Part shown: piece after piece, positions 2,981 to 5,899 of the stretch
How the letters are laid out: every line of letters begins with the position of its first letter
Position numbering within the stretch: position 1 is the stretch's first letter
Origin: a virus
Direction: 5' to 3' (one strand)
IMG/VR virus record: IMGVR_UViG_3300045988_010060
Location: 1 to 5,899 of that record
Length of the DNA stretch: 5,899 bases
Notes under the pieces: model-generated
The model's input: only the letters and a program-made list of their open reading frames with translations
Databases searched by the model: none
Told to the model about the DNA's origin: nothing
Made by a program: the position numbers and the translations under genes

Positions 2981-3181
2981 ATGAAAAGCCAAGTAACAAA
3001 AAGAATAAACGTAAATTTAACTGACCGTGAACTAACGGCACTAAAATGCTTAGAACACGAAATGAAAAACAGAAACTGGAAAATGAACGCCAGCGATATA
3101 ATCAGGGAAGCAATCGTGTACTATTGCATGAAAGAAACAGGGTACACGTTCGCCAACGAATGGAAACCCAAAACAACATAA
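2981..3181 (+). CDS. Small ribbon-helix-helix (CopG/Arc/MetJ-like) DNA-binding protein, 66 aa (RHH1)
   Basis: RBS AAAGGGG lies at 2968-2974, 6 nt before the ATG. The sequence KRINVNLTDRELTALKCLEHEMKNRNWKMNASDIIREAIVYY fits the RHH pattern: a basic-then-alternating beta strand (KRINVNL), helix 1 (DRELTALKCLEHEM), then an N-A-S cap and helix 2 (SDIIREAIVYY). Confidence 0.6.
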   Translation: MKSQVTKRINVNLTDRELTALKCLEHEMKNRNWKMNASDIIREAIVYYCMKETGYTFANEWKPKTT

Positions 3182-3220: not shown

Positions 3221-3261
3221 AGTGGGCCCCAATAACGTCAAGAGGGTTATTGGGGCCCACT
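3221..3261. promoter_or_regulatory. Perfect 16-bp stem-loop (9-nt loop GTCAAGAGG) between RHH1 and rep; function unknown (origin, attenuator or RNA element)
   Basis: AGTGGGCCCCAATAAC 3221-3236 is the exact reverse complement of GTTATTGGGGCCCACT 3246-3261. No T-run follows on the + strand, so it is not a canonical intrinsic terminator. Confidence 0.85.
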
Positions 3262-3284: not shown

Positions 3285-4403
3285 ATGTCATGTACAAAAC
3301 CACTCGTAAGATTTAGTGACGGAGAAGTAACAAGCCTTAAAAGATACCTAGAATATGGCAGAAGATACAAATCAACATTCTACATGGGAGATGGACCATA
3401 CTTAGACGAATCAGCCGAAAAAAAACTGTTGAGACAAATCAAAGAAGAAGGCTGCACACTCTTACCATGCGGACACTGTGCAGCGTGTAAGCTGACAGCA
3501 TCGAGCAGTTGGGCAAACAGAATGGAAATGGAATTACCTTACCATAAAAACGCATGGTTCCTAACTCTGACATACGATGACGAGCACGTGCCTTGGAGCT
3601 ACAACAACGGTTTAGGAATCAATAAATGGACCGGAGAAGTGGAAGTAGAAAACTTAACTCTTAATTATAAAGATATGCAAGACTTTTGGAAAAGGCTAAG
3701 AAGATACAGAGAATACCACAACATAGACGATGGGCAACTGATGTACTTTCAAGCCGGAGAATACGGAGGTAAAACACACAGACCGCACTATCATGCAATA
3801 GTGTATGATCTGAACATTAAAAAAGAGGACCTAAAAGAATACAAAAGAAAGAACGGTATTGTGTATTATAATTGCGACTGGATAACAAAAATCTGGGGAA
3901 ACGGCCACGTAGTTATAACAGAAGCGAGCTGGAAAGCATTTGCATACACAGCAAGATACACCACAAAAAAGGTATATGGCAGCGAAAGCAAAAAATACTA
4001 CTCAGACATGGGAATCTTACCGGAAAAGTGCATGATGAGCAAAAACCCGGCAATCGGTATGAAGTACTACGAGGAGCACAAAAACGAAATCTACAAGAAA
4101 GACAGCATTCAACTAAAAAACGGCAGACGCTGCAAGCCACCAAGATACTTTGATAAGCTCTTCGATCTGGAACACAGCCAAAGCGGACCACTCAGCAAAG
4201 CAGAAAGCGAAGAAATCGAAGAAACAACAGAAAAAGCCGAATCCGAAGAACTGAAAGCCATCAAACGCGAAAGGCGAAGAATTGCGAATGATGCACTATT
4301 TGCTCAGCTCAAACAGACCGGCCTAACCATGCAAGAATATTATAACCTGAAAGACAAAAAAATGCAAGAACGCATAAAAAAACTTATCAGGGAAGAAATC
4401 TAG
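3285..4403 (+). CDS. VP4: Rolling-circle replication initiator VP4 (HUH superfamily Rep)
   Basis: The ORF track opens at GTG 3270, but ATG 3285 gives MSCTKPLVRF, the usual M-x-C-x-x-P style N-terminus. A Cys cluster CGHCAACK lies at 3468-3491. Motif I is FLTLTY (3558-3575), motif II is HYHAIVY (3786-3806) and motif III is YTARYTTKK with two Tyr (3945-3971). Stop TAG is at 4401-4403. Confidence 0.9.
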   Translation: MSCTKPLVRFSDGEVTSLKRYLEYGRRYKSTFYMGDGPYLDESAEKKLLRQIKEEGCTLLPCGHCAACKLTASSSWANRMEMELPYHKNAWFLTLTYDDEHVPWSYNNGLGINKWTGEVEVENLTLNYKDMQDFWKRLRRYREYHNIDDGQLMYFQAGEYGGKTHRPHYHAIVYDLNIKKEDLKEYKRKNGIVYYNCDWITKIWGNGHVVITEASWKAFAYTARYTTKKVYGSESKKYYSDMGILPEKCMMSKNPAIGMKYYEEHKNEIYKKDSIQLKNGRRCKPPRYFDKLFDLEHSQSGPLSKAESEEIEETTEKAESEELKAIKRERRRIANDALFAQLKQTGLTMQEYYNLKDKKMQERIKKLIREEI

Positions 4404-4470
4404 CGGCCACGGCGCGCGGAAAGCAGCACACAAGAAAAACGGCATAAAGAACGGCCAATAAAGGGAAGAC

Positions 4471-4504
4471 AGGGCGACGCGATCAGATAAGATTGCGTCG
4501 CCCT
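4471..4504. other. GC-rich hairpin: 10 perfect bp, extendable to 14 bp, with a 6-nt loop
   Basis: AGGGCGACGC 4471-4480 pairs with GCGTCGCCCT 4495-4504. Inner GATC 4481-4484 pairs with GATT 4491-4494 (one G-T wobble). The loop is AGATAA. Confidence 0.75.
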
Positions 4505-4513
4505 CTATTCGTC

Positions 4514-4534
4514 CGGCGCGGGGCAGCCGCGCCG
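4514..4534. other. Second GC-rich hairpin (8 bp, 5-nt loop)
   Basis: CGGCGCGG 4514-4521 pairs with CCGCGCCG 4527-4534; the loop is GGCAG. It is followed by the palindrome CCGATCGG at 4532-4539. Confidence 0.65.
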
Positions 4535-4562: not shown

Positions 4563-4591
4563 TTGACAAGTGTATAATTTAGGTGTATAAT
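4563..4591 (+). promoter_or_regulatory. Perfect-consensus sigma70 promoter P2 (TTGACA, 17-nt spacer, TATAAT)
   Basis: TTGACA at 4563-4568 and TATAAT at 4586-4591 are separated by exactly 17 nt. The promoter is 28 nt upstream of ATG 4619. Confidence 0.75.
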
Positions 4592-4621
4592 AAAGGTGTA
4601 GAAAGGATGGTGTAAACCATG
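4569..4621 (+). repeat. Four tandem 13/14-nt units with an R-GTGTA-(T)AA core; candidate iterated operator
   Basis: The units are aGTGTATAATtta (4569-4581), gGTGTATAATaaa (4582-4594), gGTGTAgAAaggat (4595-4608) and gGTGTAaAccatg (4609-4621). Unit 2 carries the -10 hexamer. Unit 4 covers the start codon of the 84-aa ORF. Confidence 0.7.
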
Positions 4622-4873
4622 AAAGATTATGAAGAACTGAAACTGACCACAGAAGGCAATCATGAAAGTATACCAAACGATGCAGCATGGTGTCTATACG
4701 ACGGCGGATGGAGAAAAGAAGACTGGGAACTATTCAAAAAAACCGAAACCACAAAAGACCCAGAAGAAGAATTCAAGTGGTACCTAGACCCAGATAATGA
4801 ATACTGGGACAAAAGAGAATATGAAGAAGCACTAGAAATGTGCGAAAACATCGTAAAAGAAAGAGAACAATAA
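4619..4873 (+). CDS. Hypothetical acidic, Trp-rich 84-aa protein (accessory, moron-like)
   Basis: The ORF lies directly between P2 and a strong intrinsic terminator. By my count it has 26 Asp/Glu against 12 Lys/Arg (net about -14) and 5 Trp. I recognise no family. Confidence 0.7.
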   Translation: MKDYEELKLTTEGNHESIPNDAAWCLYDGGWRKEDWELFKKTETTKDPEEEFKWYLDPDNEYWDKREYEEALEMCENIVKEREQ

Positions 4874-4877
4874 CAAT

Positions 4878-4924
4878 AAAAACGTAAGAGTGAACAAAAC
4901 CACTCTTGCGTTTTTTTTTTTTTT
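4878..4924 (+). terminator. Rho-independent terminator (10-bp stem, 8-nt loop, T14 tail)
   Basis: CGTAAGAGTG 4883-4892 pairs with CACTCTTGCG 4901-4910 (one G-U wobble). The loop is AACAAAAC. Fourteen consecutive T follow at 4911-4924. A5 at 4878-4882 can extend the stem. Confidence 0.85.
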
Positions 4925-4932
4925 GGTAAAAT
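4924..4932 (+). promoter_or_regulatory. Candidate extended -10 promoter P3 (TGnTAAAAT) for the ORF40-J-RHH2-VP5-VP3-VP1-VP2 block
   Basis: TGGTAAAAT at 4924-4932 fits TGnTAnnnT. The T14 tract lies upstream and AGGAGG at 4941-4946 lies just downstream. There is no good -35 (TTGCGT 4906-4911 with a 15-nt spacer). Confidence 0.35.
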
Positions 4933-4951: not shown

Positions 4952-5074
4952 ATGAAGCTGAAAGAAATCAAAGAAATGATTGAACACCTGAAAAAGATCC
5001 TGAACACGCTGGATAAAATCTATCATATCCTGAATCAGGACGAAGACAAGGAGGAAAACAATGACACACCGTAA
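4952..5074 (+). CDS. Hypothetical 40-aa coiled-coil-like peptide with an acidic tail
   Basis: RBS AGGAGG at 4941-4946 lies 5 nt before the ATG. The product is MKLKEIKEMIEHLKKILNTLDKIYHILNQDEDKEENNDTP. It falls below the ORF-track length cutoff. Hydrophobic residues follow a 3-4-3-4 spacing. Confidence 0.5.
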   Translation: MKLKEIKEMIEHLKKILNTLDKIYHILNQDEDKEENNDTP

Positions 5075-5180
5075 GAGCGTAAATCCGAAGAAGGACCAGA
5101 GAATCTTCACCAACACAGCGAAGAAGACCAAAAAAATCAACGTGAACCCGAAGCCGTCACGCGGCGGCATCCGGCTGTGA
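5061..5180 (+). CDS. Small basic DNA-binding/packaging peptide (gokushovirus ORF8-like, phiX J analogue), 39 aa
   Basis: RBS AAGGAGG at 5048-5054 lies 6 nt before the ATG. The product is MTHRKSVNPKKDQRIFTNTAKKTKKINVNPKPSRGGIRL, with 12 Lys/Arg and 1 Asp. The F-x-x-TA core and C-terminal RGG-x-RL match my memory of this peptide family. Confidence 0.7.
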   Translation: MTHRKSVNPKKDQRIFTNTAKKTKKINVNPKPSRGGIRL

Positions 5181-5380
5181 AGCGGGTGAAGGACCTCGAA
5201 AGCTTTGGAGTGAGCGTAAAACTAGGCTACAAAGAAATGATGCTGGTGGACGAACTTCAAAAGCTGATTGAGGAAGAGACAAGAGAAAAAATAAGCGCTG
5301 GAAAAATCCTCAGAGCGCTCATCAAAGAAGGATTAAAAAACAGCCAAGCAGTAAGAGAGGAGCTTGAAAATGATTTATGA
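5177..5380 (+). CDS. Second small ribbon-helix-helix-like protein, 67 aa (RHH2); start codon uncertain
   Basis: GTG 5177 overlaps the upstream stop (GTGA). FGVSVKLGYKEMMLVDELQKLIEEETREKISAGKILRALIKEGL fits a strand (VSVKL), helix 1 (KEMMLVDELQKLIEEE) and helix 2 (AGKILRALIKEGL). There is no strong RBS. GTG 5186 is an alternative start. Confidence 0.5.
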   Translation: MKRVKDLESFGVSVKLGYKEMMLVDELQKLIEEETREKISAGKILRALIKEGLKNSQAVREELENDL

Positions 5381-5621
5381 CATCTACGCAATCAAAGACG
5401 AACTGGCCGGAACCTTCGGCAACCTGATGATTATGCTCGACAAGGTAGCAGAACGGAACTTCAAGTGGATCATGCTTGAAAGCGAAAAAGCAGACTGCGA
5501 CGACCGCAGGATCTACTACATGGGCAAATATGACAACGAGAGCGGCGCGATCTACGCAGAGCAGCCGAAACTCGTCTACAATCTGGAAGAGGAAAAGAAA
5601 AATGCCAAAGAGAATCTTTAA
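5370..5621 (+). CDS. VP5: VP5-like non-structural protein, 83 aa
   Basis: RBS GAGGAG at 5356-5361 lies 8 nt before ATG 5370 (the track starts at TTG 5364). MIYDIYAIKDELAGTFGNLMIMLDKVAERNFK...RRIYYMGKYDNESGAIY fits the Y-x-I-x-D...F...A-x-R-x-F...G-x-(F/Y)-D-x-E-(T/S)-G pattern I recall for gokushovirus ORF5/VP5. It sits in the conserved position just before VP3. Confidence 0.6.
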   Translation: MIYDIYAIKDELAGTFGNLMIMLDKVAERNFKWIMLESEKADCDDRRIYYMGKYDNESGAIYAEQPKLVYNLEEEKKNAKENL

Positions 5622-5899
5622 GCCCTTTGAAGATGAAAAACCGGAAGCAAAAGAAAACTGCTGCGGAAACCGTATGGAACCGCAGTACGCCGAACGATAC
5701 GACGAAAACGGCAAAGCCTACCTTGAAAAGGTCGGAGAGGTGGACACTTACGAAAAAATCCAGAGTTACCGGGATGAATGCGACGTAATGGCAATCCTGA
5801 GCAGATACGCAGCAGGAGACGAAACAGCACTAGCAACGCCGGGGTGGTACATCGACACCAGCAAACTTCCGAGCACATACACCGAATACATGAACATGA
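5602..5899 (+). CDS. VP3: Internal scaffolding protein VP3, N-terminal part; runs off the window end and continues at base 86 (equivalently base 1 follows 5814)
   Basis: RBS GAGGA at 5589-5593 lies 8 nt before ATG 5602. My manual translation is MPKRIFKPFEDEKPEAKENCCGNRMEPQYAERYDENGKAYLEKVGEVDTYEKIQSYRDECDVMAILSRYAAGDETALATPGWY..., with no stop before the window end. It is absent from the ORF track only because it is open-ended. Confidence 0.8.
   Translation, partial: MPKRIFKPFEDEKPEAKENCCGNRMEPQYAERYDENGKAYLEKVGEVDTYEKIQSYRDECDVMAILSRYAAGDETALATPGWYIDTSKLPSTYTEYMNM
5815..5899. repeat. Terminal redundancy: an exact copy of 1-85
   Basis: Identical 85-nt string at both window ends. Confidence 0.95.

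Follow-up and report, generated by a model that had tools for sequence, protein, structure and literature searches.

The stretch of DNA analysed here (the window) is the virus record IMGVR_UViG_3300045988_010060 of IMG/VR, whose 5899 bases comprise one circular genome of 5814 nucleotides (nt) and an 85-nt terminal overlap (1–85 = 5815–5899). The genome is that of a gokushovirus-type microvirus with all of its genes on the + strand, and its closest deposited relatives are Microviridae from pig and human gut. Here, we report on the segment 4563–4621, which is a consensus sigma-70/sigma-A-type promoter, P2, driving an optional and swappable accessory cassette, and which is a paralogue of a second promoter, P1, located in front of the genes for a small ribbon-helix-helix (RHH)-like protein, RHH1, and for the replication initiator VP4. 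An initial annotation had read the GGTGTA repeats in both promoters as 13-nt phased iterons and as a likely operator for RHH repressors, of which it named two candidates. This interpretation is partly supported. The 13-nt iteron claim is largely promoter grammar, i.e., the unit fused to the -10 hexamer and the unit at the start site recur in unrelated bacterial and phage promoters. What is specific to the viral clade after controls are the heptamer AGTGTAT adjoining the P2 -35 hexamer and a palindrome across the P1 start site. A composite reading, in which generic core units are combined with clade-specific contact points for autorepression by RHH1, has in our estimation an even chance of being correct.

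Anatomy and conservation of P1 and P2

P1 and P2 are the sole 12/12 matches to the -35/-10 consensus in the genome, and both have the build of a sigma-70/sigma-A promoter, i.e., TTGACA and TATAAT 16–18 nt apart with a gene and its ribosome-binding site (RBS) downstream. In both of them one repeat unit contains the -10 hexamer, as stated in the initial annotation, and all repeat coordinates given there are correct. The parts of the two promoters are as follows.

4563–4568, + strand: P2 -35 hexamer TTGACA, 12/12 consensus with a 17-nt spacer, conserved in 26 unique P2 sequences
4569–4575, + strand: P2 unit 1, AGTGTAT, adjoining the -35; candidate repressor half-site, present in 15 of 18 unique cores
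4582–4591, + strand: P2 unit 2 together with the -10, GGTGTATAAT (TATAAT at 4586–4591); GGTG in 16 of 18 unique cores
4595–4600, + strand: P2 unit 3, GGTGTA, 3 nt past the -10, in 13 of 18 unique cores
4609–4614, + strand: P2 unit 4, GGTGTA, overlapping the Shine-Dalgarno (SD)-like GGATGGTG of ORF84; unique to this stretch
2910–2915, + strand: P1 -35 hexamer TTGACA, 12/12 consensus with a 16-nt spacer, conserved in 36 unique P1 sequences
2928–2937, + strand: P1 unit 1 together with the -10, GGTGTATAAT (TATAAT at 2932–2937); GGTGTATA is invariant in 40 distinct sequences
2941–2946, + strand: P1 unit 2, GGTGTA, spaced 13 nt from the unit at 2928

Transcription is predicted to start at G2944 in P1 and at G4598 in P2, the seventh nt after the -10, a register in which the downstream unit puts T at -1 and G at +1.

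The RGTGTA cores of P2 (AGTGTA at 4569; GGTGTA at 4582, 4595, and 4609) are spaced by 13, 13, and 14 nt, and the two direct cores of P1 are accompanied by an inverted ACACCC at 2955–2960. The enrichment of these repeats holds under shuffling of the window: GGTGTA occurs 10 times vs 1.45 expected, a count that 0 of 200 shuffles reach, one of the 10 copies being a duplicate from the 85-nt terminal redundancy, and RGTGTA occurs 12 times vs 3.2 expected (0/200 shuffles). In a 12–14-nt phase the + strand has four RGTGTA pairs and two triples; among 2000 dinucleotide shuffles, any phased pair was seen in one and a phased triple in none. The top-ranked direct-repeat family of the genome is a 20-nt unit, AGGTGTATAATATGGGTGTA, at positions 2927, 4568, and 4581. 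P1 and P2 can be aligned all the way from the -35 to ATGAAA, including the RBS and except for the segment with the inverted arm, indicating that the two promoters are paralogous.

Relatives were gathered through the VP4 protein and not through the motif, i.e., three GenBank genomes and 41 IMG/VR loci with a VP4 identity of 51–79%; further relatives were added through an RHH1 profile, and the clade counts in this work use 46 full-size genomes. Aligned on the -10, the 36 unique P1 sequences give the consensus tTgacaaa.a.AgAAaagaGGTGTATA.TATGgGTGTA..AATC.cACAC.T and the 26 unique P2 sequences give TgCTTGACAAGTGTAT..tttAGGTGTATAATAAAgGTGTAgaAAGga. Conservation is block-wise: drift is seen in the leaders and the -35/-10 spacers, and near-invariance in GGTGTATAAT, RGTGTA, and the 3-nt gap between them, so that the 20-nt block shared by the two promoters is a conserved property of the clade. 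The repeats and their phase, which the initial annotation proposed to compare among relatives, are kept almost without change in three P2 units and in the P1 units. The fourth P2 unit reads GGTGCT, GGTGCA, or similar in relatives and is an accident of this genome, sitting on the ribosome-binding site. The three unique cores that do not carry AGTGTAT at the P2 -35 have single-base variants of it, and the spacer beside it is free to vary; at P1, the corresponding positions are variable (AACACAG, AGTGGAG, TGCGAGA, and others). One relative (L007) has lost exactly 13 nt compared with a close relative (L005), one unit including TATAAT being gone, indicating that the direct repeats undergo slippage or recombination. 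Placed side by side (L007, ~2724–2760; L005, 2724–2773), the lost unit is TATAATAAAGGTG, or an equivalent register, and corresponds to the P2 -10.

P2 opens a small cassette, the other parts of which are the following.

4619–4873, + strand: ORF84, an open reading frame (ORF); cargo gene of the P2 cassette
4878–4925, + strand: intrinsic terminator closing the cassette, a 15-bp stem followed by a T-run, kept in relatives

The cassette is optional, as 17 of the 46 genomes have P1 and RHH1 without it; in L006, for example, the whole cassette is missing. Across the genomes its slot is filled by at least eight unrelated ORFs, with the promoter and the terminator kept, and ORF84 falls loosely into the commonest cargo family, which has a common ALYDGGWR motif. 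In two relatives (L029 and L032) the promoter is kept and the cargo ORF is absent or a remnant. The cassette is thus a promoter–ORF–terminator unit variably present between conserved genes, i.e., it has the build of a phage moron. Like the morons of lambdoid phages it is self-contained and either present or absent, with ORFs unrelated between close relatives; it differs from them in belonging to a 5.8-kb single-stranded DNA (ssDNA) microvirus and in that the ORF is swapped between a promoter and a terminator that are themselves conserved. A circuit linking the rep transcription unit with the accessory cassette, as proposed initially, is at most optional, since P2 and its cargo are missing in those 17 genomes.

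The core units in unrelated promoters

The motif TTGACA-N12-13-GGTGTATAWT-N3-RGTGTA, with ~21 specified bases, was searched over 185,579 bacterial and archaeal genomes, for which a rough chance expectation is ~0.5 matches if a uniform base composition is assumed. It matched at 63 bacterial loci, all on non-phage contigs, in promoters of Clostridia, Patescibacteria, Acholeplasma, Anaerolineae, and other groups. The genes downstream are mostly of the housekeeping type, with N-termini resembling pyruvate formate-lyase, enolase, GlyA, Hsp20, and TrpRS, and some of the matches precede T-box-like leaders or one of a few regulators. As the matches stand at unrelated genes, the 20-nt core occurs without a phage protein in evidence. 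We considered whether they could be prophages that reveal the host of the virus and rejected this, because they are ordinary promoters of unrelated genes.

Two samples of unrelated consensus promoters were then compared for the distance between the -10 and the next RGTGTA. In 107 promoters from IMG/VR, with the four bases before the -10 left free and the gap floating, gaps of 0, 1, 2, 3, and 4 were found 9, 20, 5, 24, and 22 times, respectively, and each gap from 5 to 12 one to seven times; the upstream 4-mers were mainly xTGn, i.e., an extended -10. In 113 metagenome promoters, for which TG was required directly before TATAAT and the two bases preceding it were left free, gaps of 0 to 4 were found 7, 21, 6, 24, and 16 times. 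In both collections (L247–L358 and L361–L480), RGTGTA follows TATAAT most often at gaps 1, 3, and 4, and gap 2 is underrepresented. GG is the most frequent dinucleotide before TGTATAAT in the metagenome promoters (20/113), and in this sample neither GG (4/24 with gap 3 vs 16/89; odds ratio 0.9, p = 1) nor RG (odds ratio 1.9, p = 0.21) goes significantly with gap 3. Our conclusion is that the -10 unit and the start-site unit belong independently to the general makeup of strong promoters and have GTGTA in common by coincidence; no repressor is needed to explain the pair. In P1 and P2, both units would be conserved as makers of a strong promoter. A uniform iteron array is made unlikely by this comparison. 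Striking phased repeats in promoters can be largely promoter grammar, in which GGTG joined to the -10 and a start-site RGTGTA mimic iterons, and claims of iterons need controls in unrelated promoters, beyond same-genome shuffles.

Several more specific sources of the units were also considered and set aside. An extended -10 (TGn) or the Gram-positive -16 element TRTG as the reason for GGTG is in the wrong register, as TG abuts TATAAT; a sigma-dependent pause element at the start-site unit is not matched by TAGAAA and TAAGAA, which have no T at the last position; and of the host regulator boxes considered, i.e., cre, WalR (TGTWAH-N5), LexA, and the omega heptad, none fits by sequence or spacing.

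We also came across two RHH-like genes (N-termini MIRTQIYLT... and MERTQIYLT...) behind GGTGTATAAT-N3-GGTGTATAC promoters, at 587–623 of L115 and 6381–6417 of L134. Both are bacterial, one from a Desulfobacteraceae and one from a Krumholzibacteriota metagenome-assembled genome, i.e., the same direct repeat is found there outside phages.

RHH1 and the clade-specific elements

Four further features of the window are needed here.

2940–2960, + strand: P1 palindrome GGGTGT-N9-ACACCC, candidate RHH1 operator or, alternatively, + strand hairpin, made up of unit 2 (2941–2946), a conserved central AATC (2949–2952), and the inverted arm ACACCC (2955–2960)
2981–3181, + strand: RHH1, 66-amino acid (aa) ribbon-helix-helix-like protein, candidate repressor, behind P1 in 46/46 clade genomes
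3285–4403, + strand: VP4, rolling-circle replication initiator (PF23343, E = 5e-14; phrog_942, E = 5e-97)
5177–5380, + strand: RHH2, accessory ORF outside the conserved circuit, in 2/46 clade genomes

All six stem pairs of the palindrome (columns 17–22 with 32–37) form in 40 of 40 distinct sequences, and there are no insertions or deletions between the P1 -10 and the 3′ arm. One stem pair covaries (AU 18, GU 12, GC 10, mismatch 0), with a covariation score that was reached in 1 of 500 shuffle trials, and the outer pair is GU in 38 of the 40; UG is seen in the stem in 2 of the 40. Read as RNA, the element has a fold energy of -9.6 kcal/mol (z = -3.3). With G2944 as the predicted start, most of the 5′ arm lies outside the P1 transcript, which makes a hairpin in the P1 mRNA unlikely and favors a site at the DNA level. 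This leaves, for the element, a palindrome at the DNA level or a hairpin that is formed by the packaged + strand or by read-through RNA. The same geometry, GGTGT-N9-ACACC, is found at P2 in four relatives (L022, L023, L038, and L039), there with an unrelated leader downstream.

Please note that the segment 2926–2967 is also readable as a translation start, with the SD-like AAGGTG followed after 8 nt by an invariant ATG at 2938. This ATG opens a 9-codon ORF (2938–2967, MGVRIEHPT) whose TAG at 2965–2967 is within the ribosome-binding region of RHH1, and in some relatives the stop of this ORF overlaps the RHH1 ATG. A conserved peptide is unlikely, as codon positions 1 and 2 vary and position 3 is fixed.

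The order P1–RHH1–hairpin–VP4 is found in 46/46 clade genomes and in two distant ones (L195 and L481), i.e., RHH1 adjoins P1 and precedes the rep gene in every genome of the clade. In RHH1, M1, R8, N10, L13, S38, and R42 are invariant, and N12, T14, L21, D39, A44, and I45 are conserved in at least 90%; the strand reads KRINVNLT, and the central part is hypervariable. With a profile search, 327 homologues were obtained at E ≤ 0.001, and among the 120 homologues listed nearly all are on contigs of ~5.5 kb or on shorter fragments. A search for more distant RHH1 branches yielded only two loci and four proteins. The AlphaFold2 model, built on a 32-sequence alignment, has a pLDDT (predicted local distance difference test score) of 85 and shows an extended segment (1–14) and two helices (15–30 and 37–53), a monomer topology that is RHH-compatible. 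Nine of the 15 Foldseek matches of this model are RHH proteins (NikR, VapB, ParD2, Reg576, CdbA, NE0241, and Arc), all with E > 0.8. The Pfam family RHH_1 is matched weakly by 4 of 24 RHH1 family members, the best at E = 0.014, and a distant homologue, P0124, also has a weak RHH_1 (PF01402) match. The profile search of the PDB with the RHH1 family (E ≤ 10) returned only TTHA0139 and uS10, at E ~0.65, and the similarity to CopG is not significant. Taken as a model-based assignment, RHH1 is probably an RHH protein, and it is a plausible binder of the promoter elements.

Of the two RHH candidates named in the initial annotation, RHH1 is credible, given its model and the near-invariant R8, N10, N12, and T14; RHH2 is not. 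Its carriers are the two closest relatives (L185 and L200), and a protein present in 2/46 genomes cannot partner an invariant motif. RHH2 has no significant family or PDB match, its comparison with the RHH1 profile gives a probability of 2.8%, and a single-sequence AlphaFold2 model has a pLDDT of 62; with neither the distribution nor a supported fold, it was rejected as binder. It occupies a second variable slot of the genome, between a 39-aa basic protein and VP5.

In the composite reading, RHH1 would be made from P1 together with VP4, and we infer one shared transcription unit for the two genes because no terminator was detected between them. P1 and P2 would both be strong promoters of the constitutive type. 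AGTGTAT at P2 and the inverted arm at P1 (GRGTGT-N9-ACACYY across the start site) would be the likely contacts of RHH1, which, bound as a dimer of dimers to the P1 start-site palindrome, would limit the production of both itself and the rep protein. Where the cassette is present, RHH1 may damp P2 through AGTGTAT or, in some genomes, through a second palindrome. The place directly behind the promoter is the classic one for an autoregulator, and small RHH genes found there typically are autoregulatory.

The closest known counterpart is plasmid pMV158, in which copG and repB are co-transcribed from a single autorepressed promoter, Pcr, that is overlapped by the CopG operator (PMC2724298). In both cases, a small RHH-type gene stands directly upstream of, and co-oriented with, an HUH initiator gene behind one strong promoter, an arrangement found here in all 46 clade genomes and in L195 and L481, with the co-transcription inferred. 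RHH1 is of comparable small size, and its family has the weak matches to Pfam RHH_1 ('copG family'). The differences are that pMV158 is a plasmid and this is a virus and that the operators are placed differently: the CopG element is 13-bp symmetric and overlaps the -35 (PMC2724298), while the GTGT/ACAC boxes of P1 are 9 bp apart and centered at about +7, the palindrome lying over the start site. Arc and Mnt of phage P22 are likewise RHH repressors encoded by a phage; as a dimer of dimers, each occupies an inverted-repeat operator that overlaps a promoter. They differ in box spacing and position, P22 is a double-stranded DNA temperate phage, and the P1 palindrome is a candidate operator. ParR/parC and omega with its heptads also have promoter-overlapping direct repeats bound by an autoregulating RHH protein, in that case many contiguous repeats with periods of 7–11 bp. 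Here, the period is 13 bp and there are two to three conserved boxes, two of which, unlike those of ParR/parC and omega, are explained by promoter grammar.

A number of observations weigh against the composite reading. The 3-nt gaps after the -10 are themselves invariant (ATG at P1 and AAA at P2), indicating constraints beyond the GTGTA boxes; both the Foldseek and the Pfam support for the RHH fold (E > 0.8 and E ≥ 0.014, respectively) is below significance; the two distant genomes L195 and L481 share the strand as RRINVNLT and have neither the palindrome nor the start-site unit; and no covariation was seen between N-terminal variants or sequence types of RHH1 and operator variants. The asymmetry of wobble types in the stem is compatible with a + strand hairpin as well as with a loose RRGTGT half-site. 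In addition, the centre-to-centre distance of the GTGT boxes is 13 bp, vs the 4-bp boxes 5 bp apart of the Arc and CopG operators (PMC2724298); in this respect, the initial annotation's appeal to an established RHH operator architecture is not supported. Finally, in an earlier viral sample the GGTG-type promoters did favor gap 3; homologous phage families had been removed from that sample only by eye, and the effect was not reproduced in the controlled metagenome sample, which leaves room for a weak true repeat effect.

The alternative without any repressor is in our view possible, if doubtful. Here, conservation would reflect promoter strength, start choice, and the common descent of P1 and P2, and the P1 repeat would work as a + strand hairpin of the packaged ssDNA or of late-operon read-through RNA (e.g., for processing, stability, or translational coupling to RHH1), with RHH1 acting elsewhere. 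The generic nature of the core in unrelated promoters agrees with this, and so do the alignment of P1 with P2 along their whole length, RBS and ATGAAA included, the stable fold, the SD-like AAGGTG and the invariant ATG upstream, and the wobble pairs of the stem, which only the + strand tolerates. As no terminator was detected between VP2 and P1, read-through RNA is expected, and the retention of the RHH gene without the palindrome in L195 and L481 points in the same direction. What it leaves unexplained is why AGTGTAT is invariant at the P2 -35 while the same P1 positions drift, and why some P2 versions have the palindrome geometry before unrelated leaders. Its covariation evidence is from one pair only and possibly confounded by phylogeny, and a small RHH gene behind a promoter is typically autoregulatory, as is the case with CopG (PMC2724298).

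The full array, i.e., all units as one 13-nt phased operator on which dimers of RHH1, RHH2, or both cover each promoter up to the start codon, beginning at the -35, and couple rep to the cassette, is unlikely. Phased triples far above chance within the genome, the conserved 13-bp centre-to-centre spacing of three P2 units and three P1 boxes, the conserved and adjacent RHH1, and the gap-3 preference in the viral sample speak for it. Against these stand the restriction of RHH2 to 2/46 genomes, the lack of conservation of unit 4, the absence of P2 from 17/46 genomes, the 63 bacterial promoters, in front of unrelated genes, that have both the -10 unit and the start-site unit, and the metagenome sample, in which the units are no more in phase than independent features. 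The geometry would also be unusual: from a helical repeat of 10.5 bp, a 13-bp step is expected to turn successive sites by ~85 degrees, which is not known from RHH arrays such as those of MetJ, omega, and Arc/CopG (for the Arc/CopG boxes, PMC2724298). It is highly improbable that the repeats are iterons bound by VP4 in its own promoter as part of an origin, as in geminiviruses and plasmids. P1 does precede the rep operon, direct repeats adjoin the promoter, and the hairpin loop motif of L195 and L481 recurs in their P1 spacer. However, iterons of this kind would be expected beside the nick-site hairpin and to be required in every replicon, and the only origin-like element here, a hairpin at 3221–3261 with a conserved loop, is ~260 nt from P1 and ~1300 nt from P2; moreover, P2 is dispensable and the core units are generic promoter features.

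A wider form of the composite reading, i.e., plasmid-style copy control across the clade, in which a CopG-like RHH1 autorepresses P1 and also gates a moron-like cargo cassette, we hold tentatively and regard as somewhat doubtful. If true, it would mean virus-encoded transcriptional regulation within Microviridae, a family whose promoters have been described, to our knowledge, as constitutive, with no dedicated regulators; the literature searched contained nothing relevant on regulators of gokushoviruses or Microviridae. Each component, i.e., promoters, presumed RHH autoregulator, and moron-like cassette, is of a known kind, and their combination in a microvirus clade appears to be undescribed in that literature. 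The part that survives the controls, i.e., a conserved RHH gene joined to the rep operon, with a palindrome in its promoter, and an optional slot for promoter, cargo, and terminator, suggests that some microviruses may set the dosage of their replication protein like rolling-circle plasmids do, with exchangeable accessory genes.

Other genes and elements of the genome

The remaining genes of the map are listed below.

285–1928, + strand: VP1, capsid protein (PF02305, E = 1e-165)
1941–2906, + strand: VP2, pilot protein
5061–5180, + strand: 39-aa basic protein
5370–5621, + strand: VP5
spanning the circle junction, + strand: VP3

Just upstream of VP4, at 3221–3261, there is a perfect 16-bp hairpin, which is also found at 5571–5610 of L001, ~4240–4280 of L195, and ~1695–1737 of L481. 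Its stem has compensatory changes in relatives, and its loop, (A/G)TCAAGA, is conserved even in the L195/L481 branch. The hairpin is a candidate for the nick site or the replication origin. Within the P1 -35/-10 spacer of L195 and L481, the loop motif occurs again as TACATCAA(G/C). The hairpin is preceded by a conserved TTTTGTGTCA and overlapped by a promoter-like site of the minus strand, TTGACG-17-CACAAT (3241–3213). The search of Rfam returned nothing relevant.

L045 is the sole clade genome on a long contig (48 kb), joined there to plasmid-like bacterial genes (6174; 11837–11856). It was rejected as an integrated prophage and as a clue to the host, as an Illumina adapter, AGATCGGAAGAGCACACGT, stands at the end of the contig, which is probably chimeric.

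Between VP4 and P2, two GC-rich hairpins are seen at 4465–4510 and ~4513–4533, with equivalents in relatives with or without P2; these may act as weak terminators or as structures of the ssDNA. A third promoter-like site, at 4906–4932, is embedded in the terminator of the cassette, with an extended -10, TGgTAAAAT (4924–4932), where the T-run ends; TTGCGT, in the 3′ half of the stem, is a possible -35. This extended -10 is conserved in most relatives and is located ahead of the late genes, without a GTGTA unit.

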